Assembly (NCBI GenBank): GCA_964511515.1
Contig: CAZEFU010000001.1
Location: 1-33,681, forward strand
Direction of reading: 5' to 3'
Length of the DNA stretch: 33,681 bases
Source of the DNA: an uncultured Wenzhouxiangellaceae bacterium
GTDB taxonomy: Bacteria > Pseudomonadota > Gammaproteobacteria > Xanthomonadales > SZUA-36
The notes beneath the pieces are model-generated. The model was not told the origin of the DNA, did not search any database, and was given only the letters and a program-made list of their open reading frames with translations. Below, one piece after another: positions 1 to 29,586 of the stretch; within the stretch, counting starts at the first letter, position 1; each line of letters begins with the position of its first letter. The position numbers and the translations under genes were made by a program.

Positions 1-1353
<1,353 letters not shown>

Positions 1354-1399
1354 TTACCGTTTACTTGCTTATTTTGCCGCTACCGGAAGCATATTTGGG

Positions 1400-1405: not shown

Positions 1406-1439
1406 CAGATGATTGCGGAATAAGCTGAGTAATTGCATT

Positions 1440-2840: not shown

Positions 2841-2862
2841 GGGACAACTCCTTGCGGACAAT

Positions 2863-3048
2863 TTATTCTTCTTTGTTAGTATTTATATTAAATAACTTAT
2901 ATGGCAGACAATAGCCAGTAACAGCAGTCATCAGGGGTATCAAGCCTACGGCTCCCCACCAGCTCTGGTAATAAACCCCAGCAGCTATTACGACTACACC
3001 AATTACCATACGGATTCTTTTATCAGTTTGACCTACATTGCATTGCAT
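2863..3048 (-). CDS. Small two-helix membrane protein, DUF2892 (YgaP C-terminal domain-like)
   Basis: This 61-aa ORF opens with CNVGQTDKRIRMVIG followed by two hydrophobic helices, matching the DUF2892 pattern. A good Shine-Dalgarno is present (reverse strand GGAGAAATCAAAATG). Confidence 0.7.
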   Translation of the reverse strand: MQCNVGQTDKRIRMVIGVVVIAAGVYYQSWWGAVGLIPLMTAVTGYCLPYKLFNINTNKEE

Positions 3049-3107
3049 TTTGATTTCTCCATGTATTACTTGCCATAGAATTTAGCATAGTCTTTACAAT
3101 GTAACAA

Positions 3108-10832: not shown

Positions 10833-11340
10833 ATCACTCCGTGATCAGCTTTTGAGTGCAGGTTTTGCAAAACCTGTAAAAACTAAAGCTAAAAGTAATA
10901 AAAGATCAAAGCCAACAAACAACGCAAGCAAGCAAAAGTCGGATCTCGAGCAGGCATGGGCAGCGCGCAACCATGCGGAGAAAAGCGATAAACTGCAAAA
11001 ACGTGAACAGAAAAAAGCCGAGCAAAGGCGTAGGCAAGAAATAAATCAGAAAATATTTATGCTTGTCGACCCGGTTAAACTTAATATCCCTGATGCAGTT
11101 CTAGCTCGAAATTTCCTGCATCATGGCAAAATCAGAAAAGTAATGGTTGATGAAAAGCAACTGGGCAATCTGAATAGTGGTGAACTTGCAGTGGTTTTTT
11201 TACGCGGCAGGTATTTTCTGGTCAAAGCAGAAACTGCGACCGAGGTTGCAGACTTATCCCCATATCATGTACCCGATCTCAAGGGTGTAGTTGATGCTGA
11301 AGAGGCAGAACACCCTGTACCAGATGATTTAAGCTGGTAA
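10825..11340 (+). CDS. yaiL: DUF2058 family protein (E. coli YaiL-like)
   Basis: The N-terminus is [12 protein letters not shown] lysine/arginine-rich coiled middle section follows, and the C-terminus ends PVPDDLSW (E. coli YaiL ends VPDDLMW). The ATG at 10825 is preceded by GGAAGG and overlaps the uxs stop by 8 nt. The track start at 10783 is probably an artefact. Confidence 0.75.
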
Positions 11341-11345: not shown

Positions 11346-12338
11346 CTATTTGCTCGCCAATAAGGTAAGCACCGCAAAATGCGGAGTGCGTTTCTCAATT
11401 GAGGAAGTAGTGCAGAAATTCACTTCCAAACCAGCAGTTTTACAAAAATCACGTAACTCTGGCTCATCAAAACCCTGATTTACGTGATCGAAAGCTGAAA
11501 CAGCGCGGGTATGGGCATGCTGACGCAAGGTCACAGCCAACAGATTACCACCAGTCTTGAGTACTCTGGATGCCTCATCAAACACCCTTTGTGGCTCTTG
11601 GGTATAGGTAAGCGCATGCATCAGCAGCACGGTATCCATGGATTGATCGGCAAATGGAAGATTGTGCATATCGCCCTTGTGGAAGCTTACATTCTGTCTG
11701 TCTTTAAGGCGTTTTTTGCCTGCCTCGAGAATCCGGTCACTGATATCCAGGCAATGGATGCTTTTGGCATGACCCGCCAGTAATTCTGCCATTACTCCAT
11801 CTCCGGAAGCAATATCCAGCACATCGCCAAGCTCTAGTAGATGCACCAAAGCCCTGGTGGTGGCCTCCCATGTACGCCCGGGTGAATAACGCCGTTCCAT
11901 ATCACCGGCAACAGAATCAGCCCAGCTCCGTCCTGCAGAACGCTGGGCAAGAATATCGGCTATGCGTTGGCGATCTTGTTCAATTAAGGGGTCAGCCACG
12001 CTATCGCGAAAAATCTCCCATAAAGCGGCTGTTTGGCGATCATTTTGCTGCGAACTTAGGCGGTAGAACACAGAAGCGCCTGCGCGCCGGTCATTTACCA
12101 AGCCAGCTTCGCGTAATTTGGCCAGGTGGGTAGATACTCGTGGTTGCGCCAGGCGAGTAATAGCAGCCAGCTCAGCCACACTAAGTTCTTCAGATTCAAG
12201 CAAAAACAGCAACCTTGCCCGAGTTGTATCAGATAATAGCCGAATTAGTTGCGATGCAGATTGCAGGTCGATCAGGTTTCTCCTTGAATCATTTATAGAG
12301 CAATAATGCCCGAGGTGGAGTTTAAACTCAATCTCCAT
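11346..12338 (-). CDS. ArsR/SmtB-family HTH fused to a class I SAM-dependent methyltransferase-like domain (SahR-like architecture)
   Basis: The N-terminal region reads LLSDTTRARLLFLLESEELSVAELAAITRLAQPRVSTHLAKLREAGLV (ArsR wHTH). The C-terminal region has the methyltransferase motif I VLDIASGDG and a type-11 fold (VLLMHAL...LKTGGNLL). Confidence 0.85.
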   Translation of the reverse strand: MEIEFKLHLGHYCSINDSRRNLIDLQSASQLIRLLSDTTRARLLFLLESEELSVAELAAITRLAQPRVSTHLAKLREAGLVNDRRAGASVFYRLSSQQNDRQTAALWEIFRDSVADPLIEQDRQRIADILAQRSAGRSWADSVAGDMERRYSPGRTWEATTRALVHLLELGDVLDIASGDGVMAELLAGHAKSIHCLDISDRILEAGKKRLKDRQNVSFHKGDMHNLPFADQSMDTVLLMHALTYTQEPQRVFDEASRVLKTGGNLLAVTLRQHAHTRAVSAFDHVNQGFDEPELRDFCKTAGLEVNFCTTSSIEKRTPHFAVLTLLASK

Positions 12339-12646
12339 AATATCCTAAGACTGTGAGCTTTTAATGAGAGAATCACAGAAGATAGTTTACAGGCGCTGTA
12401 AATCTAGAAATATATACAGTTAATACGGCTATATTTTCTATATCAGCGGCTGTTAATAGTGAATGGTATTGGTGAAATAGTGGTTTGATCTCCGCTCTAG
12501 ATTGAAGAGTGTAGTGACTGCGGTATGAACAGATTTCGTTCAGGAATTTAATAAACTGTATGTTGCTCATCAATTAACCATTAGATGTGCGGTAATCGGG
12601 GCAAAGGTTTATAATCTTGCATATCAATTTATTGGAAAAATGCAGC

Positions 12647-13813
12647 ATGGACTTTAACTTAAGCGAAGAACAGGAAATGATTCAGGCAGCAGCCCGTGAT
12701 TTTGCTATTAGCGAAATTTTACCGGTGGCGGCTGAGTTTGATGCTAGTGGGGAATTTCCGTTGGATAATATTCGGCAAATGGGTGAATTAGGCTTGATGG
12801 GAATTGAAGTGCCTGAAAAGTACGGTGGGGCTGGAATGGATCCAGTTGCCTATGTGCTGGCAATGATTGAAATAGCCAAAGCAGATGCTGCACACTCGAC
12901 CATTATGTCAGTAAATAACTCGCTTTTTTGTCATGGAATCCTTAAGCACGGCAATGAAGATCAAAAACAGAAGTTTGTGCGCGATATTGCCACTGGTAAA
13001 AAGATTGGTGCTTATGCCCTAACTGAACCGCAATCGGGTTCTGATGCAGCCGCCATGCGTACCCGTGCGGTGCTTAGTGATGATGGCAGTCATTACGTGA
13101 TTAATGGCAAGAAATCCTGGATTACTTCAGGGCCGGTGGCTGATTATGTGGTGTTGTTTGCAGTCACTGATCCAGAGCAGGGCACCCGGGGCATCTCTGC
13201 ATTTATTGTTGAGACTGATAAACCCGGATTTATTCGTGGTAAAACCGAACCAAAATTGGGTATTCGGGCATCGGCAACCTGTGAAATAGAGTTCGAAGAT
13301 TATAAATGTCCAGCAGAAAATCTGCTCGGTGAAGAAGGGCGTGGCTTTGCCAATGCCATGGGAGTTCTTGATGCTGGTCGCATTGGTATTGCTTCTCAAG
13401 CAATAGGTATTGCGACTGCAGCGTTTGAAGCAAGCGTAGAGTATTCGCGTGATCGCGAGGCATTTGGGAAACCCATTGGGACCTTTCAGATGACGCAAGC
13501 TAAAATTGCCGATATGAAAACCCGAATTGAGGCCTCCAGATTATTAACTTTCCAGGCAGCAATGGCAAAGCAAAAATATGATCGAGGCGAGGGTGGACGC
13601 TATAGTTTACAGGCGGCAATGGCCAAGTTATTTGCCTCTGAAACCGCAATGTTTGTTGCCCATCAGGCAGTTCAAATTCATGGCGGCATGGGCTACAGCA
13701 GGGAAATGCCTATAGAAAGGTATTTTCGTGACGCTAAAATTACTGAAATATATGAAGGCACCAGTGAGATCCAAAGGCTGGTTATTTCACGCGATGTGAC
13801 TAGTATCAGATGA
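12647..13813 (+). CDS. Acyl-CoA dehydrogenase, short-chain/butyryl-CoA dehydrogenase-like
   Basis: It opens MDFNLSEEQEMIQ and carries ALTEPQSGSDAAAM, GKKSWITSG and the catalytic-Glu region ITEIYEGTSEIQRLVI. It is co-linear with bacterial butyryl-CoA dehydrogenases. The ATG at 12647 is preferred over the track's TTG at 12617. Confidence 0.9.
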   Translation: MDFNLSEEQEMIQAAARDFAISEILPVAAEFDASGEFPLDNIRQMGELGLMGIEVPEKYGGAGMDPVAYVLAMIEIAKADAAHSTIMSVNNSLFCHGILKHGNEDQKQKFVRDIATGKKIGAYALTEPQSGSDAAAMRTRAVLSDDGSHYVINGKKSWITSGPVADYVVLFAVTDPEQGTRGISAFIVETDKPGFIRGKTEPKLGIRASATCEIEFEDYKCPAENLLGEEGRGFANAMGVLDAGRIGIASQAIGIATAAFEASVEYSRDREAFGKPIGTFQMTQAKIADMKTRIEASRLLTFQAAMAKQKYDRGEGGRYSLQAAMAKLFASETAMFVAHQAVQIHGGMGYSREMPIERYFRDAKITEIYEGTSEIQRLVISRDVTSIR

Positions 13814-16800: not shown

Positions 16801-18811
16801 CGGTGGTTCGGTGGGTTATGACCATAAGGTTATGGGTATTACTGCCAAAGGTGCCTGGGAATCTGTAAAACGGCATTTCCGCGAACTTGGAGTAGATACG
16901 CAAACAGAAGATTTTACAGTTGTTGGCATTGGCGATATGGCTGGTGATGTGTTTGGTAACGGAATGTTGCTTTCCGAGCATATTCGCTTGCAAGCAGCAT
17001 TTAATCATATGCATATCTTCCTTGACCCTGATCCAGATGCTGCCAGTAGCTTTGCCGAACGACAACGCATGTTTGCGCTACCGCGCTCCAGTTGGGATGA
17101 TTACAACCACAAGTTAATATCCAAAGGTGGCGGTGTTTTCTCAAGGCAACTGAAGTCCATTGAGCTAAGCCCACAAGTTAGGAAATGGCTGGGTGTGGAT
17201 GAAAAGCAAATGACACCAACTCAGCTAATAATATTGCTGTTAAAAGCTAAAGTTGACCTGCTCTGGAATGGTGGCATTGGTACCTATGTTAAGGCTGCTT
17301 CAGAGAGTAACGCTGATGCTGGCGATACTGCAAATAATATACTACGAATTAATGGTTCTGAGCTAAATTGCAAGGTTGTAGGCGAGGGCGGAAACTTGGG
17401 CTTTACCCAGCTTGGCAGGGTGGAATATGCATTCTCTGGTGGGCGGATCAATACTGACTTTATTGATAATTCCGCCGGTGTGGATTGCTCAGATCATGAA
17501 GTAAATATAAAAATATTACTCAACCAGCTTATGCGTCAGGATAAATTGGATTTTAAATCTAGAAATGAATTACTAGTTGAAATGACAGCTGATGTTGATC
17601 AACTGGTGCTGCGCTCTAACTATCTGCAATCACAAACCATTTCCATGATGGAACGCTTAACTGGCGCCAGATTAGGCGCCAAAGCACATTTTATTGAGTC
17701 TCTAGAGCAACAAGGATTACTGGATCGCGAGTTGGAGTTTCTGCCATCAGATGAAGATATTGAACAACGTCGTAGCACAGGTAAAGGTCTTACCAGACCA
17801 GAGCTATCAACTTTGCTCTCCTATGCAAAAATTGTGTTGTATCAGCAGTTACTGAAATCTGATCTACCTGACGATGAATATTTGCGTACCGAGTTGTTTG
17901 ATTACTTTCCAACAGCAATTCAGCAACGCTATCCAGATGAGATGCACCAGCATCGGTTGAAACGCGAAATCATCACTACTATGGTTACCAATTCGATAGT
18001 GAATCGAATGGGAGCGTCATTTTGTTTGATGATGCAAGAAGCAACTGGGCATAGTCCGGGTGAAGTTAGCAGAGCATTTCTGATTGCCCGCGATGCCTTT
18101 GACCTAGACCCTTTGTGGTTGGCTGTTGAGGCCTTGGATAATAAAGTTTCAGCTACAGTGCAGACTGATGCGCTGCTCGTGGTTTGGAAGCTGTTGCGAC
18201 AGGCTGTGCGCTGGTTGTTGGTACAAGCTGATCTAGAATTAGATATCAAACTTCAAGTTGATCGCCTGAAGCCTGGTATTACCAAGTTAGCGGCAAGTGT
18301 ATCGAGCCTATTGAATAAAGATGATCAGCGCCTGCTCTCATCTCAGGTACAAAGATATGTAGGCTCAGGGCTTGCAGATGAGCTTGCCAATACTCTTGCA
18401 CTTCTACCGCGTTTAACATCTGCATTAGATATTGTTGATGAAGCAGGGCGCAGAGATTTACCCGTGGAGAAAGTTGCCGCAGTATATTTCCAGCTTGGTC
18501 AAACCATGAACCTGAAGTGGCTGATGCAGCAAATTGAAGAACTGGATGTAGAAGGGCAATGGGATGCCGCGGCTAGAAATATTTTACGCGAGGAGTTGTT
18601 CCGGCAACATCGTGGACTCGCCGGGCAGGTATTGGTTGCTTATGGAGATGCCGGTGATGAAACTGTCAGCCGCTGGCTGGGTGATAACAAAGATGAATTG
18701 GATCGGGTAATCGAATTACTGGCCGATATGCGTACACTTCAAGAGCTTGATTACGCGACGATTTCAGTAGCAGTTAACTCGCTGCGTAGTTTGCTCAAAG
18801 AACCGGTCTAA
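13868..18811 (+). CDS. gdhB: Large (about 180 kDa class) NAD-specific glutamate dehydrogenase
   Basis: A single 1647-aa ORF. The central catalytic region reads RGGLRWSDRREDFRTEVLGLMKAQNVKNTMIVPVGAKGGFV and VVAADKGTATFSDTAN, with a dinucleotide fold GIGDMAGDVFGNGML. The size and layout match the Pseudomonas/Streptomyces GdhB class. Confidence 0.93.
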   Translation: MTEIKEIRAAVAALLKAREDLPFTDLRLLAEEFFRQATADEFLERSPDELAGRITDLYQFIEQRDKGASKVRIFNPEAEKNGWDSSASVIQLNNPDGPFLVDSISLLLAEGDIGIHHLFHPVINVVRDESGKLLRILSAEKSKKDKDSVSESLIYLVVDRLSKDRLQRLKKVIYKVLAELKLVVADWRPMVEKALETSAALTADSDSKSRDDSADASRFISWLADDNFIFFGYRQYKISGKGDARVLQIVPESGLGILDEQHSPGAPRPLSSLPAIDINSSKDKPDLLIITKTSTRSSIHRSGYMDYIGVKIFDKKGKAIGEHRFIGLFTSNAYTRSAWDTPLIRARVEAVMQHSGLRPDSHAWKALIHILETLPRDELFQSTVAELSSLALAILKLQERQRTRLLIRRELFGRFYSCMLFIPRDRFNTENRRAIQTILKRCLKGERIDYQVQVSDSPLARLHIVVRPRAGEDPQFDVAEIEAKIVKAVRSWEDELKQILIQKQGETDGLAVFEKFNRAVPLSYTEDVSPWVASFDLQNMAELTDENDLGMSLYRPRKKRMGVLRFKVFKYSRPIPLTEVLPMLENLGLSIVSERPYEFRLTADKSIWVQDFDMVLATGGDLDIEAVRENMQTAFERTWRGHNESDSFNRLVLSARLHWRQITILRAYCKYLLQTGMPFSQAYMAQTLENYPLLARLLVDLFETEFDPARDKESEAGARRRGGRMQKAYAVLHEDTASALGEYLQAAVDARGSGKRAAQIKTLKAAILCALESVASLDQDRILRAFCNLILATLRSNYFRSDEAGNPREYLSFKIDSALVVDLPKPCPFREIWVYSPRVEGIHLRMGKVARGGLRWSDRREDFRTEVLGLMKAQNVKNTMIVPVGAKGGFVVKRMPEGDRETVMKEVVHCYKSFIRGLLDISDNLVEDEVLPPPDVLRLDEDDPYLVVAADKGTATFSDTANEVAAEYGFWLGDAFASGGSVGYDHKVMGITAKGAWESVKRHFRELGVDTQTEDFTVVGIGDMAGDVFGNGMLLSEHIRLQAAFNHMHIFLDPDPDAASSFAERQRMFALPRSSWDDYNHKLISKGGGVFSRQLKSIELSPQVRKWLGVDEKQMTPTQLIILLLKAKVDLLWNGGIGTYVKAASESNADAGDTANNILRINGSELNCKVVGEGGNLGFTQLGRVEYAFSGGRINTDFIDNSAGVDCSDHEVNIKILLNQLMRQDKLDFKSRNELLVEMTADVDQLVLRSNYLQSQTISMMERLTGARLGAKAHFIESLEQQGLLDRELEFLPSDEDIEQRRSTGKGLTRPELSTLLSYAKIVLYQQLLKSDLPDDEYLRTELFDYFPTAIQQRYPDEMHQHRLKREIITTMVTNSIVNRMGASFCLMMQEATGHSPGEVSRAFLIARDAFDLDPLWLAVEALDNKVSATVQTDALLVVWKLLRQAVRWLLVQADLELDIKLQVDRLKPGITKLAASVSSLLNKDDQRLLSSQVQRYVGSGLADELANTLALLPRLTSALDIVDEAGRRDLPVEKVAAVYFQLGQTMNLKWLMQQIEELDVEGQWDAAARNILREELFRQHRGLAGQVLVAYGDAGDETVSRWLGDNKDELDRVIELLADMRTLQELDYATISVAVNSLRSLLKEPV

Positions 18812-19575
18812 TGGCACGGTTGCGTCTGCATATAGTTGGCTCCAGGCACACTCAAACACCGGCTGCCCTGGCCGAGTTAAAATCCAGATACGGGCATGTG
18901 CCACTGGATTCAGCAGATGTAATTGTTGCCCTTGGTGGAGATGGCTTTATGTTACGGGTTCTGCATAAATTTGTTGATACAGGACTACCAGTCTATGGTA
19001 TGCGTTTAGGCAGAGTTGGTTTTTTGATGAACAGGTATCAGAATGATGACTTACTGCAAAGGCTAGATCAGGCCGATTGCGTAGCTCTTAAACCACTGAA
19101 AATGGAAGCATTGACAGCAAGTGGCGAGAGGCATACAGCCATGGCAATAAATGAAGTTTCATTATTGCGCCAGAAAAACCAGGCGGCACACCTGCAAATT
19201 ACTGTTAATAATGCCGTAAAAATTGAAGAGCTGGTAGCGGATGGTGTGTTGGTGGCGACCGCTGCTGGTAGTAGTGCGTATAATTTTTCTGCCTATGGGC
19301 CAATCTTGCCGCTGGACTCGAATGCTTTGGCGCTCACCCCGATTTCACCGTTCAGACCACGCCGCTGGCGCGGGGCGGTACTGCCGGCGGCAGTGAAAAT
19401 AGTTATTGATTTGCTAGACCATCAACAACGGCCAGTTAGTGCGACCGCCGACTTCATAGAAGTACGGGATGTGGTCAGGGTAGCAATTACCGAAGACCAG
19501 CAAACCAATCTAAAGTTAATGTTTGACCCGGATCATTCTCTGGAAGAACGCATTCTAAACGAACAGTTCAGATAA
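18811..19575 (+). CDS. nadK: NAD kinase (short, about 255-aa type)
   Basis: It carries the GGDGFML motif, VGFLMN, NEVSL and DGVLVATAAGSSAYNFSAYGPI. The start ATG shares one base with the gdhB stop (TAATG). Confidence 0.85.
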   Translation: MARLRLHIVGSRHTQTPAALAELKSRYGHVPLDSADVIVALGGDGFMLRVLHKFVDTGLPVYGMRLGRVGFLMNRYQNDDLLQRLDQADCVALKPLKMEALTASGERHTAMAINEVSLLRQKNQAAHLQITVNNAVKIEELVADGVLVATAAGSSAYNFSAYGPILPLDSNALALTPISPFRPRRWRGAVLPAAVKIVIDLLDHQQRPVSATADFIEVRDVVRVAITEDQQTNLKLMFDPDHSLEERILNEQFR

Positions 19576-19696
19576 ATACTCATCTGCAAGCCTCTATTAC
19601 CTTGGTTGAAAGGACGCATGGGAGTATAAGTCGACTTACGCAAAGGTTCAGTAAGATATTGGATTTTAAATTAATGAATGGACACGGAACACCGAT

Positions 19697-21193
19697 ATGG
19701 AAATCAATATGATAAGAAGAATGACACTATTAACAATGCTCTTTGTTAGCGTGGGCAATACATCATATGCTGCTGAGTACTGGGTAGCAAAAAATGGTGA
19801 TGACGATAACAATTGCAGTAATGCAAGCAATGATGCCTGTTTGACCATCCAGAAAGGTATCAGCATGGCGACTCAGGCAGGTGATACTGTAAATATAGCA
19901 GCAGGAACTTATATAGAAGATACCTCTACGAGTCCTTATACAAGCAGAGCCGGGTGGCTCGATGGTGACTATGCCAGCCTGGGACTTGATTATAGTGGAA
20001 CACCTGGAAACCTAATCACCATACAAGCGGCTCCTGGTGCTGAAGGTGAGGTCATTATTGATAGTGAAATGGCTCGACTCGGACTAACTACAAGGAATCT
20101 CGATTATGTTCATATTAAGGGTTTGACTTTTATTAATAATAAAATAATTGGTATTGCATCCTGGGGGCAAACCAGTAATGCTGTGGCAGATGAATCCAGG
20201 CTTGCTATTGGTATAGTTGTTGAAAATTGTTACATATACAATACAAGTGGAGCATGGGGGAAGAATGTATCCGCAATTGGTATGTGGGGCTCTAAAGACT
20301 GGGTTGTGAGAAATAACAAGATTGAGAAAGTTGTTACTACTACACAAAATGAATCAGGTATTCAGGCTTATGGTGTTATTAATGCACTGATTGAGCATAA
20401 CGATATTTCAGATGTAAAAAACGGCATCTTCTGGAAAGATCACTTTATTACAGATCTAGCTACCCGAGGCAAGGTTAACGAATCTGAGATTAGATTTAAT
20501 AAGATTGAGGCAACAGACAGGCCGATTTGGGTTGGCATCAGGGCTACTAACTCTGTTGAGGCAGGAGATAATTATATACATCATAATATTTTATTCGGAC
20601 ATGGCTCCAATGAGGAGGGTGGTGTGAGTATAGAAATGGCTAGTGCTTTTGCACAAAGTGGCAGTGTGCGGATTGAACACAACTTGATTGATGGGGAAAA
20701 TATCACCCACTCCCGAGGTATTAAAGTTGACTCATCTGAAAATATTACAGTAAAGGGCAATATAATTATTCGCACTAAAGTGAATGCAGAATATACTACC
20801 TGGAACTCAAGTATAGCTTTAGGGAAGAAGCCCACTCTTAACTATTCGGATTACAATATCTACAATACTTTTAATCTTGTAATTTCTGCAGATAGCTATG
20901 GCAGTGCTTACCAGGGTTTTTCTGCTTTAAACATTTGGCAGACAGCCCTGGCTTCTCAATTTGTTTCACTAAATTTTGATAATCCAGATGCAAATAGCAT
21001 TGCTGTAAATCCAGCTGATTTATTTGATAACCTGGATAATAAAAACTACATATACAAAGCTGGTTCACCTGCCATAGGCATGATGCCGGATGGAACCAAC
21101 GCAGGTCCTTATCAGCTTGGCAATGAAGTCATTGGGTTGTTACCGCAGTGGCCTGCTGGTACAGGCCTGATATTTGCCAATGACTTTGAATAG
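19697..21193 (+). CDS. Secreted right-handed parallel beta-helix repeat protein (possible polysaccharide lyase/hydrolase/epimerase fold; function unknown), paralog A
   Basis: It has a Sec signal peptide (RRMTLLTMLFVSVGNTSYA|AE). The N-terminal cap YWVAKNGDDDNNCSN..DACLTIQKGI...GDTVNIAAGTY is typical of pectate-lyase-fold proteins. Repeated short I/V-x-N coils follow (VVENCYIYNT, VVRNNKIE, LIEHNDI, YIHHNIL, RIEHNLI, TVKGNII). It ends LIFANDFE-stop. The start could also be the in-frame ATG at 19709. Confidence 0.85.
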   Translation: MEINMIRRMTLLTMLFVSVGNTSYAAEYWVAKNGDDDNNCSNASNDACLTIQKGISMATQAGDTVNIAAGTYIEDTSTSPYTSRAGWLDGDYASLGLDYSGTPGNLITIQAAPGAEGEVIIDSEMARLGLTTRNLDYVHIKGLTFINNKIIGIASWGQTSNAVADESRLAIGIVVENCYIYNTSGAWGKNVSAIGMWGSKDWVVRNNKIEKVVTTTQNESGIQAYGVINALIEHNDISDVKNGIFWKDHFITDLATRGKVNESEIRFNKIEATDRPIWVGIRATNSVEAGDNYIHHNILFGHGSNEEGGVSIEMASAFAQSGSVRIEHNLIDGENITHSRGIKVDSSENITVKGNIIIRTKVNAEYTTWNSSIALGKKPTLNYSDYNIYNTFNLVISADSYGSAYQGFSALNIWQTALASQFVSLNFDNPDANSIAVNPADLFDNLDNKNYIYKAGSPAIGMMPDGTNAGPYQLGNEVIGLLPQWPAGTGLIFANDFE

Positions 21194-21233
21194 TTACTTC
21201 GCACAATATAAAACATAAATAAGAAAAACCAAG

Positions 21234-22196
21234 ATGAAAACTAACATAATAAAATCTTTGATAATCTTAACGACCTTATTAGGGTTTACCAATGTATCAG
21301 CACAGCAAGGTGCAGTACCGACAACATTAGCCAGCCCAGAATGGGAGTTTTTTGATGATTTTGAGGGAGCTATTGATAATTCTTTTTGGATATGTGGGAT
21401 GAATGGTGCTGCAGAAAAGGTGTTGCATGGTGTCGATAGACTAGAAGCCACCAGTAAAGTATTAGAGATGAAATATTACGCAGCTGGCACAGATCCCCAC
21501 ACTATAGCTCCTGGTGATTCCTGGACTGAATGTGATTTTGGTCTTACTTCAAACGGTATTTCTATACAGGCCGTACAAGTAGAGGTGAGCTTTAAAATAT
21601 TTACACCTGCTAATTATGTGCCTGTTGAACTCAATCATAAGTTTTTTATGCTTTGGTCTGGAAATTATGGCGGTTCAGTTGCAAATATTGCTGTTAATAG
21701 TGAAGCATGGGGCAATGAATCTGTGGCATTACCATCTATTAATCCTGGTATTGATCAAGTAAATTACGGACACTCATGGAATATGGATCAGTTGCCTGTA
21801 TGGGAAACTGGATCTGGCGAATGGTCAAGCTATCAAATATTTTTAGAACTAGCTACTGAAGAAGGCGACTATGGTTTATATGAGATTTTTAAGGATAATG
21901 TCCTGTTGACGGCAACTTATGCACCTAATCTCAATAACTGGGGATGGACAGGAAATGGCAATCCTGATTTTAATGGTAATGAACTTATTAAATACGCTTC
22001 TTCAACAATTAACAATGGCGGTAATTTTATAGATCAAGGTACATTATTAGGCTGGGCAAACGGTGCCCCAGGTGGTGGATTCCAGGAAGATACCAAATTT
22101 TTGATAGATGACTTTAGAATCCGAGCTAACGCTGTACACGGAGCTGTACTAAATTCTAATGACTTAATATTGACGGATGGCTTTGAGAGCAACTAG
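21234..22196 (+). CDS. Secreted protein, probable ConA-like/jelly-roll fold (function unknown)
   Basis: It has a signal peptide (SLIILTTLLGFTNVSA|QQ). The mature N-terminus is EWEFFDDFEG and the C-terminal strand is KFLIDDFRI, both typical of the edge strands of lectin/glucanase/lyase jelly rolls. It ends LILTDGFESN-stop. The fold assignment is inference only. Confidence 0.8.
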   Translation: MKTNIIKSLIILTTLLGFTNVSAQQGAVPTTLASPEWEFFDDFEGAIDNSFWICGMNGAAEKVLHGVDRLEATSKVLEMKYYAAGTDPHTIAPGDSWTECDFGLTSNGISIQAVQVEVSFKIFTPANYVPVELNHKFFMLWSGNYGGSVANIAVNSEAWGNESVALPSINPGIDQVNYGHSWNMDQLPVWETGSGEWSSYQIFLELATEEGDYGLYEIFKDNVLLTATYAPNLNNWGWTGNGNPDFNGNELIKYASSTINNGGNFIDQGTLLGWANGAPGGGFQEDTKFLIDDFRIRANAVHGAVLNSNDLILTDGFESN

Positions 22197-22224
22197 ATAC
22201 TTTAAGCTCAAGAGAAATAAGGAC

Positions 22225-23115
22225 ATGATGCATAAAGCAATATTTAAATTAACCCTATTACTTATATTAGTTAGCTTCATTCGTTTTGATGCATTCGCAG
22301 GCACCTTGGAAATGACCTTTGATTCTGGTGTTTCAGGTGAAAGCATCCAGTCAGGTGATTGCATAAAATATGGTGAACCAGTATTTACCTCAACTGCTGG
22401 CAGGACATTTTATACCGAAGCAGAATCATTTGGTATAGGCAAATCTGCTGAACTGAATGTTGTGCAGGGCAGCAATGGATTTGGAACACTGGGGGGAGTA
22501 ATAAACTTCCCTTCTTGCTCTAATTTTGATGATTTAGCCGGCAAGATCACGAAAGGGCAAGAGATCTGGGTAAGTGTCCGGTTAAAATTCCCAGCAGATT
22601 TCGAGTTTAACCAAAATGGCAGAAACAAGTTTCTAAGATTAAGGGCTTTTCACGATGTGGATGGTTCACCTGTGAGCGAAGGCTATAACGACTTATATAT
22701 TAATGGTCCATCAGGATTAGGCGAGCAGCCATTTCATTATATTTTTGAAGGAGCCCAACAGTGGTACTTTGCAGGTGAGCCCAATGATTTTTTTAAATTG
22801 GGTTATTGGAATACTATAGAGTTCTACCTCAAACTTGACAATGTAAAAGGCAGCGAGGGTGGTGAGTCAATGGTCAGAGTTTGGATTGATGGCAGATTAA
22901 TTGGTGAAACTAATGACAGGAATATTTTGGTTTATGCCGATAGCTATATAAGCTCATTATACTTTTTCACTTATTGGGACAATGAGGGCGCACATATGGA
23001 TCAGAAGTTTTGGGCTGATGACCTGACAATTACGACAGAAACTCCCGCTGACAGGGATCAATATGGTAACCCCATGATTGGAGTTGGTTTGCTTTTTACG
23101 AATGGCTTTGAGTAA
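22225..23115 (+). CDS. Secreted protein, probable jelly-roll fold resembling heparin-lyase-I-like/polysaccharide-lyase beta-sandwiches (function unknown)
   Basis: The ATG-ATG at 22225 is preceded by AAGGA. It has a signal peptide (AIFKLTLLLILVSFIRFDAFA|GT). The C-terminal half reads YWNTIEFYLKLDN...MVRVWIDGRLIGE...SLYFFTYWDN...KFWADDLTI, a pattern common in jelly-roll lyase/lectin families. It ends LLFTNGFE-stop. The track ORF starts earlier (22177), at an ATG embedded in the upstream gene's terminal motif. Confidence 0.8.
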   Translation: MMHKAIFKLTLLLILVSFIRFDAFAGTLEMTFDSGVSGESIQSGDCIKYGEPVFTSTAGRTFYTEAESFGIGKSAELNVVQGSNGFGTLGGVINFPSCSNFDDLAGKITKGQEIWVSVRLKFPADFEFNQNGRNKFLRLRAFHDVDGSPVSEGYNDLYINGPSGLGEQPFHYIFEGAQQWYFAGEPNDFFKLGYWNTIEFYLKLDNVKGSEGGESMVRVWIDGRLIGETNDRNILVYADSYISSLYFFTYWDNEGAHMDQKFWADDLTITTETPADRDQYGNPMIGVGLLFTNGFE

Positions 23116-23214
23116 ATATATGAAGAAAACTATTCTAGGCAGAGATTATTGCATAACTATGGTGACGAGTAAAAAGTGATTAAGTCCTACAGCTTTTTGC
23201 TGAAAACTATTACC

Positions 23215-23236
23215 AATAGCTGCTGCTATTATTTTT
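23215..23236 (+). terminator. Weak candidate intrinsic terminator after the third island gene
   Basis: AATAGC (23215-23220), loop TGCT, GCTATT (23225-23230), then ATTTTT. The stem is only 6 bp and AT-rich. Confidence 0.3.
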
Positions 23237-23282
23237 AGATTTCCAGCCCAATCTGACGGCACCCATGTTTTTTCTTTTGCCG

Positions 23283-23288
23283 TATAAT
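23283..23288 (+). promoter_or_regulatory. Candidate -10 element (perfect TATAAT) upstream of beta-helix paralog B
   Basis: TATAAT lies at 23283-23288, 27 nt before the ATG at 23315. No convincing -35 was found at 16-18 nt spacing. Confidence 0.25.
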
Positions 23289-23314
23289 TAGCGAAATCAT
23301 CTAGGTAAAAACTT

Positions 23315-24868
23315 ATGTATGTAATAAATGAATATAAAAGTAATAAAGCAGTAAAATTGTTGCTTATATCATTAACCCTACTTTGTTTGGGCATCACAAA
23401 TGCATTAGCTCAAGATATATATTGGGTTACAAAGAGTGGTAGTGACGACAACAATTGCACCAATATAACCGATGATGCCTGTCTAACAATCCAAAAAGGA
23501 ATAAGTGTGTTGACTCCAGGCGATACACTCAATGTAAGCGCAGGAATTTATGCAGATGATGGTGGTACAAGCCCCTATATTCCAACAGGAACTTTTGTGG
23601 GATGGTCAGATAATGTTCCGCCCTCGAGCAACATTGTATTTACGACCAATGGTGAATTAGACAATTTAATTACAGTCAGAGCAACACCAGGAGACGAGGG
23701 CCTGGTAACCATTGACGGCGAAAACCAAAGAATAGCAATACACCTGCAAAATACAGATTACATCCGCATAAGTGGCTTTAATATTATCAACAGCAGAACT
23801 AGAGCAATTGCAAGTTGGGGTAAGTCAAATGACCCTTTAGTAGATCCTGAAAGAATAAGCACAGGTGTTATTATTGAAAATAATAAAATGATTAATACCA
23901 TAGGGGAGTATGGACGCAATACCAATATCATATCCATGTGGGGTTCACAAGACTGGATTGTGAGAAACAATTATTTAGACAATGTTTATGAGGTAGATGC
24001 GGGGACTACTAATTTTAGACGCATGGGCACAGCTATTATGGCATATGGTGTAATAAATGCCTTGATTGAAAACAACGAAATAAGAAATGCAGGTGCAGGC
24101 ATTTTTTGGAAAGACCACTATATAACTGACCTTGCCACCCGAGGTAAATATTTTGAGTCTGAGATTAGGTACAATAAAATTATAGTAGACTCAAAACCAG
24201 TTTACATCGGTATTAGGGCTGGTGATTCTGCTGAAGCCGGAGATAATTACATACATCATAATATTTTATATAAAGATAAACTCAATGATTCAGGTGGCAT
24301 AAATGTGGAAATGGCAGGAGCTTTTGCCCAAAGTGGAGATGTGCGGATCGAACACAATTTGATAGATGGAGTAAATATTACTAACTCCAGAGGTATTAAG
24401 GTTGATGCCTCTAGAAATATCACGGTAAAGGGAAATATAATCATTCGTGCCAGAACGAATGCGCGATATACAACATGGAGTGCAGCTACAGATCTGGGTA
24501 AAAAGCCTGTATTGAACTATTCTGATTATAATGTATATCATAGTTCAAATAGTATAATTAGTGTTGATGCCTATGGGCTCTCTTCCCAGGGTTTTGCTAC
24601 TCTGCCTCCATGGCAGGCAGCCTTGGCTTCTCAATTTGTAACACTGAATTTCGATAATCCTGATACAAATAGCATTACAGTAAATCCAGCAGATCTATTT
24701 GATAACCTGGGTGATAAAAATTACATATACAAAGTTGGTTCACCTGCCATAGACATGATGCCAGATGGAACCAATGCAGGCCCTTATCAATTTGGTGGTG
24801 AAACTATTGGATTATTACCACAGTGGCCCAGTGGCGCAGTACCGATATTTACCGATGGTTTCGAATAA
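23315..24868 (+). CDS. Secreted right-handed parallel beta-helix repeat protein, paralog B
   Basis: It has a signal peptide (KLLLISLTLLCLGITNALA|QD) and is co-linear with the 19697-21193 product over its whole length (YWVTKSGSDDNNCTN..DACLTIQKGI, AGDNYIHHNIL, VRIEHNLIDG.NIT.SRGIKVD, NITVKGNIIIR). It ends PIFTDGFE-stop. Confidence 0.87.
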   Translation: MYVINEYKSNKAVKLLLISLTLLCLGITNALAQDIYWVTKSGSDDNNCTNITDDACLTIQKGISVLTPGDTLNVSAGIYADDGGTSPYIPTGTFVGWSDNVPPSSNIVFTTNGELDNLITVRATPGDEGLVTIDGENQRIAIHLQNTDYIRISGFNIINSRTRAIASWGKSNDPLVDPERISTGVIIENNKMINTIGEYGRNTNIISMWGSQDWIVRNNYLDNVYEVDAGTTNFRRMGTAIMAYGVINALIENNEIRNAGAGIFWKDHYITDLATRGKYFESEIRYNKIIVDSKPVYIGIRAGDSAEAGDNYIHHNILYKDKLNDSGGINVEMAGAFAQSGDVRIEHNLIDGVNITNSRGIKVDASRNITVKGNIIIRARTNARYTTWSAATDLGKKPVLNYSDYNVYHSSNSIISVDAYGLSSQGFATLPPWQAALASQFVTLNFDNPDTNSITVNPADLFDNLGDKNYIYKVGSPAIDMMPDGTNAGPYQFGGETIGLLPQWPSGAVPIFTDGFE

Positions 24869-25082
24869 GAGAAACTTATATAAAACAAATACAGTTAGAA
24901 AGATAACATTATCAGTCTTGATTCTTTTAAGCATAAGCAGCACATCATTCGCTGCTGAGTGCTGGGGAGGAGTGATTGTCTTTCCTGAAAAAGATCCTGT
25001 ATTGAGTGAACAATTATCACTGATAAGGATAGGCGACTACTTCCATGCCTTTTCAGAATGGTATAGCCCCGGATATTGCTAG
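24855..25082 (+). CDS. Hypothetical 75-aa secreted pre-peptide; predicted 42-aa mature peptide with Cys at position 3 and at the C-terminus
   Basis: The only usable start is the ATG at 24855, inside the last codons of the upstream gene. It has a basic n-region (MVSNKRNLYKTNTVRK), an h-region ITLSVLILLSISS and an SFA|AE cleavage-like site. The mature sequence would be AECWGG...SPGYC-stop. No family was recognised and there is no Shine-Dalgarno. Confidence 0.45.
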   Translation: MVSNKRNLYKTNTVRKITLSVLILLSISSTSFAAECWGGVIVFPEKDPVLSEQLSLIRIGDYFHAFSEWYSPGYC

Positions 25083-25122
25083 TCGCAATTCCAGGAAACT
25101 GGCTGTGTTATTTCCGCAGAGC

Positions 25123-26043
25123 CTATGGATTAGCAACCCCATGAGGAACATGCCCGGTAGGTACATGAGCTTTGGCAGACTCACAGTGCATCTGTTGGTC
25201 ATCAAAGAATATATCAGCACCAAAAGCCTGTAAAAACTCGCCTTTGGAAAGCCCACCAAGAAATAGCGCTTCATCAACTCTAATACCCCACTCACGTAAG
25301 GTCAGAATCACCCTTTTATGGGCTGGTGCTGAACGGGCAGTTACCAGTGCGGTACGGATTGGATTACCCTCAATTGGCCAGGCAGATTGAATGCGATGCA
25401 AGGATTCCAGTACTTTACGAAATGGGCCTTCTCGCAATGGTGTATTGGCAGCGGCTTTTTCAGACGCAGAAAAAGCCTTAAGGCCCGATTGCTTGTAAAC
25501 TCTTTCGGCTTCATCTGAGAACAAGACGGCATCACCATCAAAGGCAATTCGCAACTGATCCGGGTGTCGGTTGTTGGCTGTGGAGGGCAAAATAGTCGCT
25601 GCGGCATAACCTTGTTCAAGAGTTTGTCTGACATCCTCACCATTAGCTGAAAGAAACAACTGCGCCCCGAAAGAACTCATATACTGCTGCGGTGGCTCGC
25701 CATTGGTAAAAGCAGCCCGAGTTATATCCAGGCCCATGGCCTCGATGGTATTAAAGATCCTCAAGCCAGAATCGGCGCTATTGCGGGACAACAAAATCAC
25801 TTCAACAAGAGGGCTATCACCACGACCTTGGTTGAGTTTTAGAAGCTTTCCTACCAGCGGTAAGGCAACGCCTTCTTCCAACAGCTGATTCTCATGCTCG
25901 CGCTGATATCTAGCGTAAGACTCCAAGCCCTGAGTTTCAAAGATCAAATGTGCTTCATCGAGGTCAAACAACGCACGTGAGGCTATTGCCACGACCAATG
26001 GCTCGGGCTTGGGTTCAGAAATGGTTGAAATAACATCTTGCAT
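25123..26043 (-). CDS. 5'-nucleotidase, cytosolic cN-I-like family (Pfam 5_nucleotid type)
   Basis: VVAIASRALFDLDEAHLIFETQGLESYARYQREHENQLLEEGVALPLVGKLLKLN and IRTALVTARSAPAHKRVILTLREWGIRVDEALFLGGLSKGEFLQAFGADIFFDDQ match my recollection of the bacterial cN-I-like family. The likely start is the ATG at 26043 (MQDVIS), not the track start at 26130. Confidence 0.72.
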   Translation of the reverse strand: MQDVISTISEPKPEPLVVAIASRALFDLDEAHLIFETQGLESYARYQREHENQLLEEGVALPLVGKLLKLNQGRGDSPLVEVILLSRNSADSGLRIFNTIEAMGLDITRAAFTNGEPPQQYMSSFGAQLFLSANGEDVRQTLEQGYAAATILPSTANNRHPDQLRIAFDGDAVLFSDEAERVYKQSGLKAFSASEKAAANTPLREGPFRKVLESLHRIQSAWPIEGNPIRTALVTARSAPAHKRVILTLREWGIRVDEALFLGGLSKGEFLQAFGADIFFDDQQMHCESAKAHVPTGHVPHGVANP

Positions 26044-26152
26044 AAGGCCACTATAGCAAATTCTAGTCGCAAAACCTGAGAAATGAAATGTGCTATACCT
26101 GAGCCTGAAAATATTGATAAAATAGCGCAAATCAATTAACTCGGAAAACCCT

Positions 26153-27328: not shown

Positions 27329-27871
27329 CTATTGGTGGCTCTTTAATAACATTCTTTGCATAACCGGGTCAGCGCCAAGTATCACACTAGCGTCACTAAA
27401 ACTGAACCAGCGTAGATCGTTAGATTCTGTCGAGAGACTTAGTTGTGAAGTTTGAGCCTGGAGTAAAAAGCGGGCATCGAAGTGCTCGTGTTCAGGGATA
27501 TCCCCACGCGCTGGAATCGAATGAATATCAAAATCGAAAATCGAGTTTTGAATTAAATTAAATGACTCAATCCCGGTTTCCTCGCGCGCCTCGCGCAGTG
27601 CTGCATTTAACCAACTGCTATCTTCTGCTTCAATATGGCCGCCCGGCTGTAACCACCTATCAAGTTTGCGGTGATGTAACAACAAAACCGCATCCATTGT
27701 GGGATTAAGAACCCAGCAAGATGCGGTTAAATGGCTTTGCATGTTATCCGCCTGCCAGAATTTGTCTTGCTTAGTGACTAAGCCTAAAGCACGCTCAGTA
27801 TCCGCAGACACGGCTGAGTCTGCGGGCTGATGTTGATTTAACAGTAGCTGACAATCAGTTCGATTAATCAC
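27329..27871 (-). CDS. NUDIX hydrolase
   Basis: It has the Nudix box GGHIEAEDSSWLNAALREAREETGIE. The track start is a GTG overlapping the upstream stop (GTGA). An internal ATG (MQSHLTASCWVL) would give a more typical shorter protein, so the start is uncertain. Confidence 0.85.
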   Translation of the reverse strand: MINRTDCQLLLNQHQPADSAVSADTERALGLVTKQDKFWQADNMQSHLTASCWVLNPTMDAVLLLHHRKLDRWLQPGGHIEAEDSSWLNAALREAREETGIESFNLIQNSIFDFDIHSIPARGDIPEHEHFDARFLLQAQTSQLSLSTESNDLRWFSFSDASVILGADPVMQRMLLKSHQ

Positions 27872-29559
27872 TCAGCTAAGCTGGCATCACGAATTGCTTT
27901 AAATTCATTGCCTTCATACCAGTATGGAGTCTCACTACTGTTAGCAAAGTGCTCACCAATCTTAAAGAACAGCTCTACATCTTCAACCATCCCGCGTAGA
28001 TCCCAGTCATCATTAATTTCATCACCAGGGGCATGGTAACGGTTGGCAATATGATAGGCGTTTATATCACGCATCCATTGCTCGCCTTTTTCACGATGTT
28101 TAACTCCGCCCTTGGCATACAAAACTGGAACACCGCGTTTAGCAAAGTTAAAGTGATCAGAGCGGTAGAAGAAACCTTTCTCTGGAGTAGGTTCAGGTTC
28201 TACCATACGGTTTTGCGATTTCGCTGCAATTTTTAACTGGTCTTCAAGGCTTGAACTACCATAACCAACCACCACGACATCATCAGACGGGCCGTAAACG
28301 CTCAAAGCATCCATATTGATGCCGCCAACAGTCTTATTTAACGGAAAGGCAGGGTTGGCACCGTAGAATCCTGAACCCAGCAGGCCTGATTCTTCAGCAG
28401 TTACTGCCAGAAAGCCAATACTACGGGCAGGGGCTTGGTCTGATTGAGCAAAGGTGTTTGCTAGAGCGATTAATGCAGCAATACCGCTGGCATTATCTAC
28501 CGCACCGTTATAAATATTGTCACTGCCATCGGTTACAGTTGCATCTGTACCTAAATGATCCCAGTGTCCCATATAGAAAAACAACTCATCAGCTTTAGTA
28601 CTCCCAGGAATGATTCCGCCGATATTATATGAGCTAGATTTTTTTAAACTGTTTTGTAAATGAACTGATATATTCCACTTTAGTGGGATGGCTTCGAAGT
28701 CATTTGAGAGTGCTTCAAGTTTTAATTCTTCGAAATTAAAGCCCGAACTATTTATCATCTCAGTGGCGATATCATTAGTAACCCAAGACTCGAATACTAA
28801 TTTATCCATATTGCCATTGTCACTATCCAGTACTAGTTGCGGTCCAGACCATGAGGATTCAACTACTTTCCAGGGATAAGCAGCAGGTGCTGTTTCATGC
28901 ACAATAATCATCCCAGTTGCGCCTTGGCGCGCAGCTTCTTCATATTTATAAGTCCAGCGGCCGTAGTAGGTCATGGCATTGCCATTAAATAGATTTGGAT
29001 CTTGGGTTGCGAAACCTGGGTCGTTAACCAACACCATAACGGTTTTACCTTTTACATCCAGACCCTTGTAATCATCCCATTCATACTCTGGGGCAACAAT
29101 GCCATAGCCGGCAAATATTACTTGTGAACTCATTACACTCACACTGTCAACAACCTGGCTAGTACCGAGCATTATTTCTGGACCATATTTAAGTTGTTTC
29201 CGGTTCTTGCCTTGGCGAATACTTATTTTTATAGTTTCAGGTTTTGCGGTTATTGAAACCATTGATACTTTTTGCCTGTAGCTATCGCCAAACATCGGTT
29301 GCAAACCTGCATCGCGATATTTTTTCTCGATGAAATCCATAGTTAGCCTGCCGCCAGCGGTACCCGGTGCTCTACCAGCGAAATGATCAGAAGATAGCAC
29401 CTCGATATCTGCCATCATCTTCTCCACTGTAATGAATTGATTACTAGGCAGGATTTGCTCTGCCACCGATTCAGTTTTTGGCTGATGTTGGCAAGCATTA
29501 ATTGCTAAAGCTAAGATAATGATAGTTACCAAGCGGGATAAGAGTATTGCTTTGTTCAT
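27868..29559 (-). CDS. M28-family aminopeptidase with PA domain, exported (possible lipoprotein)
   Basis: The metal-ligand motifs are MGHWDHLG, GAVDNASG, TAEESGLLGS, YRSDHFNF and YHAPGDE. The N-terminal signal ends LALAINAC. The likely start is MNKAILL at 29559. Confidence 0.88.
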   Translation of the reverse strand: MNKAILLSRLVTIIILALAINACQHQPKTESVAEQILPSNQFITVEKMMADIEVLSSDHFAGRAPGTAGGRLTMDFIEKKYRDAGLQPMFGDSYRQKVSMVSITAKPETIKISIRQGKNRKQLKYGPEIMLGTSQVVDSVSVMSSQVIFAGYGIVAPEYEWDDYKGLDVKGKTVMVLVNDPGFATQDPNLFNGNAMTYYGRWTYKYEEAARQGATGMIIVHETAPAAYPWKVVESSWSGPQLVLDSDNGNMDKLVFESWVTNDIATEMINSSGFNFEELKLEALSNDFEAIPLKWNISVHLQNSLKKSSSYNIGGIIPGSTKADELFFYMGHWDHLGTDATVTDGSDNIYNGAVDNASGIAALIALANTFAQSDQAPARSIGFLAVTAEESGLLGSGFYGANPAFPLNKTVGGINMDALSVYGPSDDVVVVGYGSSSLEDQLKIAAKSQNRMVEPEPTPEKGFFYRSDHFNFAKRGVPVLYAKGGVKHREKGEQWMRDINAYHIANRYHAPGDEINDDWDLRGMVEDVELFFKIGEHFANSSETPYWYEGNEFKAIRDASLAE

Positions 29560-29586
29560 AGTAAAGTCCATTGCTTAAAAAAATTG

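Follow-up and report, generated by a model that had tools for sequence, protein, structure and literature searches.

A short, acidic C-terminal tail on secreted proteins of the order Lysobacterales as a candidate sorting or anchoring tag

A four-gene island and its shared C-terminal tail

We analyzed a 33,681-nucleotide stretch of DNA from an uncultured Wenzhouxiangellaceae bacterium (contig CAZEFU010000001.1, positions 1-33,681; hereafter the window), in which an island of four plus-strand genes lies between the genes for an NAD kinase (18811-19575) and a 5'-nucleotidase (25123-26130, minus strand) and all four island proteins end in variants of one short peptide, the tail considered here. 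The island encodes, in order, beta-helix protein A (19697-21193; 498 amino acids), the secreted protein JR1 with a putative jelly-roll fold (21234-22196; 320 amino acids), the secreted protein JR2, predicted to be a jelly-roll of the polysaccharide-lyase type (22225-23115; 296 amino acids, most likely starting at the ATG at 22225, with AAGGA 5 nucleotides upstream), and the secreted beta-helix protein B (23315-24868; 517 amino acids), and each of the four begins with a Sec-type signal peptide. Their C-termini read ...GLIFANDFE, ...LILTDGFESN, ...LLFTNGFE and ...PIFTDGFE, respectively. The tail itself is LIFANDFE in A (21167-21190, then TAG), LILTDGFE in JR1 (22164-22187, then Ser-Asn-TAG, and with Asp at position -9), LLFTNGFE in JR2 (23089-23112, then TAA) and PIFTDGFE in B (24842-24865, then TAA), giving a window motif of [LIVP]-[IL]-[FL]-x-[ND]-[GD]-F-E with zero to two residues beyond it.

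This recurrence far exceeds what base composition would produce. The degenerate DNA pattern TTNNNNRAYGRNTTYGAR, which encodes [FL]-x-[ND]-[GDE]-F-E, matches the window five times against 0.02 matches expected from dinucleotide-preserving shuffles; four of the matches are the tails and the fifth encodes FFDDFE, an N-terminal strand of JR1, and no other open reading frame (ORF) of at least 120 amino acids in the window carries the tail. Since the four tails use differing synonymous codons (TTT or TTC, GAA or GAG, GGC or GGT, ACG or ACC), the constraint acts at the protein level. The tail is acidic, and in none of the four genes is the motif followed by a hydrophobic or basic segment, or by any Arg or Lys. 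The beta-helix proteins A and B are paralogs that share 59% identity along their full length; between JR1 and JR2 the similarity is not significant (E = 0.87), and neither of these two resembles the beta-helix proteins. Because A and B may have inherited the tail jointly, the window holds three independent carriers and not four. The sequence thus bears out most of what a first-pass annotation had reported of the island, namely the four tails at these positions, the two jelly-roll proteins as barely alignable with each other and unrelated to the beta-helix proteins, and the lack of a transmembrane helix or basic tail after the motif. Its further argument, that common descent of whole genes cannot explain the tail, stands for JR1, JR2 and the beta-helix proteins as groups and need not hold for A and B.

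Structure prediction would place the tail outside the folded part of its carriers. AlphaFold 2 (AF2) models of JR2 (mean predicted local distance difference test score, pLDDT, 92.2) and beta-helix protein B (mean pLDDT 92.6) predict a jelly-roll and a right-handed beta-helix, respectively, with bodies above 90 and the last 5-10 residues as coil at a pLDDT of about 40; JR2 residues 290-295 and beta-helix B residues 513-517 are coil below 50. In these models the tail is an appendage to the fold. In the PDB, JR2 is matched best by the polysaccharide lyase (PL) family 36 alginate lyase Aly36B (6kzk, E = 7e-10), a PL20 glucuronan lyase and PL14 alginate lyases. The best matches of beta-helix B, with 5olr and 8bwk at E about 1e-6, include a rhamnogalacturonan lyase of PL9, alginate lyases of PL6 together with chondroitinase B, and glycoside hydrolase family GH136. 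For A, a right-handed beta-helix of the polysaccharide-lyase type is predicted from its paralog B. Pfam and NCBIfam searches with the four island proteins gave nothing above threshold; JR2 has a weak match to Pfam PL14 below the cut-off.

From these predicted folds and from the gene context of homologs and of the window, we consider it most likely that the island's products are enzymes that act outside the cell to cleave or modify a polysaccharide, and the lyase matches of the models suggest that this polymer may contain uronic acids. A beta-helix homolog (P0020, loci L003 and L004) and a JR2 homolog (P0097, locus L127) sit within exopolysaccharide biosynthesis clusters that encode Wzy, glycosyltransferases, polysaccharide deacetylases, ATP-grasp enzymes and a low-molecular-weight phosphatase, with an exosortase also present in L003. 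Within the window, adjacent plus-strand genes for a UDP-glucose/GDP-mannose dehydrogenase and an NAD-dependent epimerase (8536-10832) possibly make nucleotide sugars, conceivably uronic acids, judging from their Pfam families, which is consistent with a uronate-containing polymer as the substrate of the lyase-like enzymes. The remainder of the window consists of housekeeping genes; their products share 63-74% identity with the counterparts in a Marinicella metagenome-assembled genome (MAG) and in a related MAG, so that the source of the window is probably related to Marinicellaceae. The G+C content of the island (19600-25100) is 0.38-0.39 against 0.43-0.48 in its flanks, and this lower value, together with the position between housekeeping genes, suggests that the island was acquired as a block. 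A scan of the island for promoters, terminators and repeats found no signal above shuffled controls.

Distribution of the tail and of what replaces it

Beyond the island, the tail recurs at the ends of secreted proteins concentrated in one bacterial order. A scan of one genome per species across 185,579 species with the pattern ATHTTYNNNAAYGGNTTYGARTAR, which encodes IFxNGFE followed by TAA or TAG, returned at least 120 matches, and of the 120 listed, 91 end long ORFs, defined as having at least 100 amino acids upstream or running off the locus (87 with a threshold of 150 amino acids). By the taxonomic labels that the records carry, the matches listed divide sharply: in named Lysobacterales 68 end long ORFs and two fall in short ORFs, as chance would give; in unresolved proteobacterial MAGs the numbers are 21 and six; and in all other named taxa, which include Brucella, Bacillus, Enterococcus, Erwinia and Colwellia, they are two and 21. 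The Lysobacterales among the matches listed are Marinicella and other Marinicellaceae, Dokdonella, Rudaea, Rhodanobacteraceae, Ahniella, Tahibacter, Aquimonas, Pseudofulvimonas and Pseudomarimonas; the order comprises three families, Marinicellaceae among them (PMC12195097). The G+C content of the carrier loci spans 0.34-0.71.

The motif belongs to the end of the protein. In the 528,197 residues of the retrieved ORFs, a core regular expression of the motif occurs 122 times within five residues of the ORF end, a count that includes the ORFs selected by the scan, against 11 internal occurrences, which is about the chance rate estimated from residue frequencies. Termination falls exactly at the last motif residue in 110 of 123 tagged ORFs (89%), the others carrying 1-12 extra residues, and position -9, which lies two residues before the Ile and is not constrained by the scan pattern, is Asp or Glu in 91 of the 123 (74%). 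The working consensus is [DE]-x-I-F-x-[ND]-G-F-[ED]-COOH.

Close homologs keep the tail. Beta-helix homologs with 55-70% identity (P0002-P0009, P0024) end in LIFANDFE, LIFGNGFE, LIFTNGFE, VIYSNGFE, NIFSNGFE, DIFSNGFE, MLFSNSFE or LIFTNGFEEE, and close JR2 homologs (P0072-74 and P0085) retain it as well. In a Dokdonella-like family of choice-of-anchor Q proteins, 58 of 61 homologs that are 29-100% identical to the query end in RERIFANGF[EDNQ]; across these homologs (P0151-P0211) the most fixed tail residues are I-F...G-F, and a few members have Ser, Thr or Gly in place of the Asn at position -4. The Dokdonella carrier is annotated at NCBI as a "choice-of-anchor Q domain-containing protein", and its NF041518 domain ends 4-6 residues before the tail; several carriers are members of the choice-of-anchor families.

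The carriers otherwise have little in common. Tagged proteins form at least ten separate BLAST clusters and belong to unrelated families (GH9, choice-of-anchor Q, FG-GAP-like repeat proteins, He_PIG, Big_9 and CarboxypepD_reg), with probable S8 peptidases among them as judged by eye from C-terminal motifs. One locus (L001) encodes five tagged proteins, including a 751-residue CarboxypepD_reg protein and two paralogs of an unassigned family, and another (L005) encodes five that include a GH9 cellulase, a Big_9 protein, a He_PIG protein and a 760-residue protein; single MAGs yield three or four separate loci among the matches listed, which represent one strict sub-pattern. Of 90 full-length carriers, 57 passed a crude signal-peptide filter, and inspection by eye shows a signal peptide in the stop-to-stop frame of many of the others. 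The first-pass annotation had asked for enrichment beyond the four island genes, and it is present in many unrelated families; its companion idea, that the tag marks one co-functioning set of enzymes, fails, as unrelated carriers are found in loci without these enzymes and the tail instead marks a broad secreted proteome across an order.

Three features of individual loci deserve mention. In L005, the five tagged genes (939-3367) lie directly downstream of AAA_16 and T2SSB genes that resemble a GspA/GspB pair, a single case that is possibly coincidental. The same locus contains a beta-helix gene split into two overlapping ORFs (9405-10954; a frameshift or a pseudogene), and in L002 truncated duplicate beta-helix fragments (11616-13023) lie downstream of an intact copy.

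More distant homologs of all three window families carry PEP-CTERM, MYXO-CTERM or the C-terminal domain (CTD) of type IX secretion system (T9SS) cargo in place of the tail, or no tail. Beta-helix homologs P0010-P0014 end in ...PEPTSA, a hydrophobic segment and RRGRSRR, and P0014, with a score of 13.6, falls just short of the TIGR02595 cut-off (16); four neighbors of P0014 in L002 have a PEP-type tail like its own, and the three that can be identified are a PL14-like protein, a glyoxal oxidase and a protein with a faint PEP-CTERM match. Some beta-helix homologs stop directly after a conserved GxExIG without any tail. Among JR2 homologs, P0091 and P0094 carry PEP-CTERM (16.3 and 19.4 bits; cut-off 16). 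The closest representative homolog of JR1, P0113, bears a T9SS type A CTD (47.5 bits; cut-off 23), P0120 carries MYXO-CTERM (20.6 bits; cut-off 20), and other JR1 homologs have Pro-rich tails. The first-pass annotation's question about orthologs in other taxa is answered in two ways, in that close orthologs keep the tail and distant ones have another signal or nothing in its place.

Two further recurrent tails appeared among these homologs. One consists of a Pro-rich stretch, a short alternating hydrophobic strand and the stop (for example PPTNIQIQVVN, RPLPPVLTVD and SPPAPPALEVQ) and ends 22 of 71 beta-helix homologs (carriers within P0015-P0070), 16 of 41 JR2 homologs (within P0084-P0112) and six of 38 JR1 homologs (within P0116-P0149) from other lineages, the few with organism names being gammaproteobacteria such as Marinobacter; it presumably resembles the strand that opens an FN3 or Ig domain and could represent a further orphan tag. 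The other, with two cysteines, reads ...PPPCPPPFGL, 8-10 residues, C-[EKQ] and the stop, and occurs in JR2 homologs (P0076-P0080 and P0083; L128, 10001-10930), of which P0083 is labelled as coming from a Chromatiales MAG. Separately, an ORF that adjoins a tagged gene in Marinicella sp. W31 (L052, 3237-3752, minus strand) ends in ...VPTLDSSAIFFLCILILVIFRLKH, which resembles IPTL-CTERM in having a motif, a transmembrane segment and a basic end, so that classical three-part signals may coexist with the short tag in one genome.

A candidate sorting tag and its alternatives

Eight attributes have been set out for recognizing small C-terminal sorting signals (Haft; bioRxiv 10.1101/2023.06.07.544157, Methods), and the tail has attributes 1, 2, 3, 6, 7 and 8 while lacking 4 and 5. 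Its motif stands at the end of 110 of the 123 tagged ORFs and is terminal 122 times against 11 internal occurrences (attribute 1); it recurs on several proteins of one genome, four in the window and five in each of L001 and L005 (attribute 2); and its signature residues are I, F, N/D, G, F and E/D, joined by D/E at position -9 in 74% (attribute 3). N-terminal signal peptides are found on all four window proteins and on 57 of 90 carriers by the crude filter (attribute 6), carrier pairs such as JR1 and JR2 (E = 0.87), and others of differing Pfam families, share nothing but the signal (attribute 7), and in all three window families the homologs from other lineages have some other signal or none (attribute 8). 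Since the last of these is itself a mark of sorting signals, the absence of the tail from distant orthologs is not the refutation that the first-pass annotation had counted it as.

The tail thus behaves genomically as a C-terminal sorting signal yet belongs to no described class. Because its carriers are exported by Sec, the tail appears exposed and flexible, and evolution has exchanged it for signals that anchor proteins at the surface, we think that it is probably a short, lineage-restricted C-terminal sorting or anchoring tag that lacks the usual three-part architecture. The earlier suggestion of an undescribed sorting, secretion or assembly tag gains support from the enrichment, from the unrelated carriers and from the other signals found in distant homologs. 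That the tail is a sorting signal at all, where it would be read and whether it would be cleaved or ligated we infer from comparative evidence.

Carriers would be exported by Sec, leaving the tail as a free, flexible peptide beyond a short, acidic, Pro-rich spacer that follows the last folded domain. As the tail has no membrane segment, its reading would have to occur in the periplasm or at the outer membrane, where a trans-acting factor would recognize it. The most plausible mode of capture is beta-strand addition, as suggested by the alternating hydrophobic residues of the tail and by its resemblance to the strand that opens LamG and lyase jelly-rolls. Recognition would lead to translocation across the outer membrane, retention at the cell surface or both, and at the island the tag would place the four enzymes at their polymer, outside the cell. 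A more specific version, which we advance tentatively and rate somewhat below an even chance, is that Lysobacterales, including Marinicellaceae, possess an undescribed sorting system in which this anchor-less nine-residue peptide is read by a new receptor or transpeptidase of the periplasm or outer membrane, followed by cleavage or ligation at Asx-Gly (Asx being Asp or Asn) or by strand complementation, with secretion or surface fixation as the outcome.

Several observations weigh against a dedicated sorting tag. The genome scan rests on one sub-pattern with at least 120 matches, and among the matches listed for that sub-pattern Xanthomonas and Lysobacter are apparently missing. The tail lacks the transmembrane segment after the motif (attribute 4), the protein ending 0-5 residues on in nearly all cases, as well as the terminal basic cluster (attribute 5), and among three-part sorting systems there is no precedent for how such a tag is read. 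Its residues are not absolutely fixed, the last being Glu, Asp, Asn or Gln and position -4 occasionally Ser, Thr or Gly, and extensions of up to 12 residues past the motif occur; this variation argues against strict recognition of the terminal carboxylate, of the PDZ type, and the substitutions at -4 against strictly Asx-specific chemistry. The motif is also very similar to the strand with which LamG and lyase jelly-rolls ordinarily begin (FxDDFE), a similarity that makes a structural or docking role possible. Finally, all-against-all clustering of 2,761 ORFs from 128 loci revealed no recurrent untagged neighbor, the untagged neighbors being of generic families (sensor kinases, ABC transporters and dehydrogenases), and no candidate gene for recognition or processing is apparent in the local neighborhoods or in the window, the rest of which is housekeeping.

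Two genes near the island were considered as partners and set aside. One, an M28 peptidase (27868-29571), lacks the tail and shows no connection with it. The other, a small plus-strand ORF (24855-25082; 75 amino acids), whose ATG at 24855 lies inside the last codons of beta-helix B, encodes a signal peptide (KITLSVLILLSISSTSFA, cleaved before AE) and then 41 residues that open and close with Cys (AECWGG...SPGYC), with no Pfam match and no homolog in any retrieved locus.

The alternative that survives best, which we consider unlikely, is that the tail is a docking or assembly tag, an orphan beta-strand that would insert into an acceptor on a surface scaffold or on partner enzymes, either non-covalently or through an Asx-Lys isopeptide bond, by analogy with dockerin-cohesin pairing, the donor-strand complementation of pili or a natural SpyTag. 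The fifth match in the window speaks to this directly. The motif EWEFFDDFE of JR1 (21339-21365, plus strand) has the tail-like spacing D/E-x-x-F-x-D/N-D/G-F-E, its FFDDFE (21348-21365) lies at the N-terminus of the mature protein (PEWEFFDDFEG), and [DE]W.F.D[DN]F[ED] is conserved at the mature N-termini of JR1 homologs, so that D-x-I-F-x-N-G-F-E matches this strand in spacing and key residues; the mature chain of a jelly-roll protein in L001 begins similarly, with LITDSFES. The tail may therefore mimic the ordinary first strand of a jelly-roll, and it is free and unstructured in the AF2 models; the Pro-rich second tail, which likewise resembles the first strand of a domain (FN3 or Ig), recurs in all three families. 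Yet the resemblance was noticed post hoc and covers five of nine positions, JR1 possesses both its own N-terminal strand and the tail, and no acceptor protein came to light. Ser, Thr or Gly at position -4 fits poorly with an obligatory Asx chemistry, and the replacement of the tail by true sorting signals in homologs indicates surface anchoring in general and not docking in particular.

It appears improbable that the tail acts in cis, with no reader at all, folding back on its own enzyme or binding substrate or Ca2+ and serving as a cap, an autoinhibitor or a contact for polysaccharide or metal, and that it recurs as a convenient module. The tail is acidic (D, E and the terminal carboxylate), its N-G or D-G pair could favor a tight turn, FxDDFE strands are ordinary elements of jelly-rolls, and several carriers are carbohydrate-active enzymes. 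A cis role must accommodate carriers that differ in fold and activity, from beta-helix and jelly-roll proteins to GH9, probable S8 peptidases, FG-GAP-like and CarboxypepD_reg proteins, as well as AF2 models that leave the tail undocked on both modelled bodies and homologs that function without it or with membrane-anchor signals instead; in addition, among the matches listed the tail is confined to one order, whereas the carrier families are widespread.

We give still less credence, and very little in absolute terms, to a tag for processing or turnover, that is, a site for a periplasmic or extracellular protease in zymogen-like maturation, degradation or stress sensing, akin to the outer-membrane-protein C-termini that PDZ proteases recognize. 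Such a reader would find the tail exposed and conserved at the C-terminus of exported proteins, and the PDZ domains of proteases such as DegS and Prc bind short C-terminal peptides by strand addition, but the last residue of the tail is acidic or amidic and not hydrophobic, extensions past the motif are tolerated, the surface-anchoring replacements in homologs point to localization, and a degron on dozens of stable extracellular enzymes would be hard to rationalize. That the tail is no real feature but the product of chance, whole-gene descent or a translated repeat or terminator is almost certainly wrong, since, even allowing that one of the four coincidences was inherited between A and B, the excess over expectation, the undetectable relationship of JR1 and JR2, the varied codons, the G+C range of the carriers, the position of 91 of the 120 matches listed at the ends of long ORFs and their concentration in one order, and the lack of repeat or terminator signal above shuffled controls together rule out a DNA repeat or common descent.

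To our knowledge, outside T9SS and the three-part CTERM systems it is largely unexplained by what means Gram-negative bacteria choose the folded periplasmic proteins that they export or retain at the surface, and we know of no linear signal established for the cargo of the type II secretion system. If the more specific version of our reading is correct, the tail would be a rare linear and transferable post-Sec sorting signal for soluble proteobacterial exoproteins, served by machinery unrelated to exosortase, rhombosortase, myxosortase and T9SS. Such a tag would flag the secreted or surface proteome of a whole order, would account for the missing anchor on that order's choice-of-anchor proteins and, at the island, would mark the four enzymes as extracellular, polysaccharide-processing proteins. 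As a nine-residue peptide that is recognizable from sequence and present in cultured Marinicella and Dokdonella, it is amenable to direct experiment, and it could serve as a compact tool for display or secretion.

Comparison with known C-terminal signals

Neither NCBIfam (June 2026) nor Pfam contains a model that covers the tail, and full-text literature searches turned up no description of it, which does not exclude an earlier sighting elsewhere. The first-pass annotation had set the tail apart from exosortase signals, the T9SS CTD and type I secretion (T1SS) signals, and the comparisons below uphold that view.

The closest parallels are the systems in which a three-part signal is paired with a dedicated enzyme, namely PEP-CTERM with exosortase, GlyGly-CTERM with rhombosortase, MYXO-CTERM with myxosortase and LPXTG with sortase. 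Like these, the tail lies at the extreme C-terminus of several carriers per genome with a near-invariant signature, its carriers are unrelated proteins with signal peptides, and homologs elsewhere lack the signal or have another. It differs in having no transmembrane helix, no Arg/Lys cluster and no PEP, GG, Cys or LPXTG signature, and we know of no cognate enzyme. With PEP-CTERM, GlyGly-CTERM and MYXO-CTERM, an intramembrane protease acts on substrates retained in the inner membrane, and because the tail has neither membrane helix nor basic cluster it cannot work in that way. Membership in PEP-CTERM can be set aside for the four window proteins, which have no NCBIfam match at E <= 1 and lack the PEP signature, the transmembrane helix and the Arg cluster alike.

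The T9SS CTD (TIGR04183) resembles the tail in being C-terminal without a membrane anchor and in serving Sec-exported enzymes, which it takes across the outer membrane onto the cell surface and which are cleaved from it, and P0113 bears such a domain where JR1 has the tail. The CTD, however, is a folded beta-sandwich of about 70-100 residues in Bacteroidota, whereas the tail comprises nine apparently unstructured residues in Gammaproteobacteria; the four proteins have no TIGR04183 match, and the AF2 models have only 5-10 disordered residues past the catalytic fold. T1SS signals are uncleaved and extend over about 50 amino acids, often after RTX repeats, on proteins without a Sec signal peptide, whereas each of the four proteins has a Sec signal peptide and RTX repeats are absent from all of them. 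The beta-signal of outer-membrane proteins ends a beta-barrel with a terminal aromatic residue, and the tail ends in Glu, Asp, Asn or Gln on carriers modelled as soluble beta-helices and jelly-rolls.

Two looser analogies bear on how the tail might be read. Tags that act by strand addition include the TonB box, PDZ ligands, the donor strands of pili and SpyTag or isopeptag, and the tail may be likened to them in its length (theirs being 7-13 residues), its alternating hydrophobics, its exposure and its Asx within a hydrophobic strand, while differing in its acidic last residue and in having no partner that we know of. Plant Asx-specific peptide ligases act at sites such as N-HV for butelase-1 and N-GL for OaAEP1. 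By analogy, [ND]-G-F followed by E-COOH would have the form of a transpeptidase site that releases a short leaving group, although no bacterial enzyme is implicated and position -4 of the tail is occasionally Ser, Thr or Gly.

The choice-of-anchor families (NF041518, choice_anch_Q, and its relatives) are so named because their members bear whichever C-terminal anchor their lineage uses. Several carriers belong to them, and in these the tail occupies the anchor slot; NF041518 itself models the preceding domain and not the tail. Shared C-terminal sorting tags are thus known as a kind, and what is new here is a tag of that apparent kind that is short, acidic, free of a transmembrane segment and restricted to one order.

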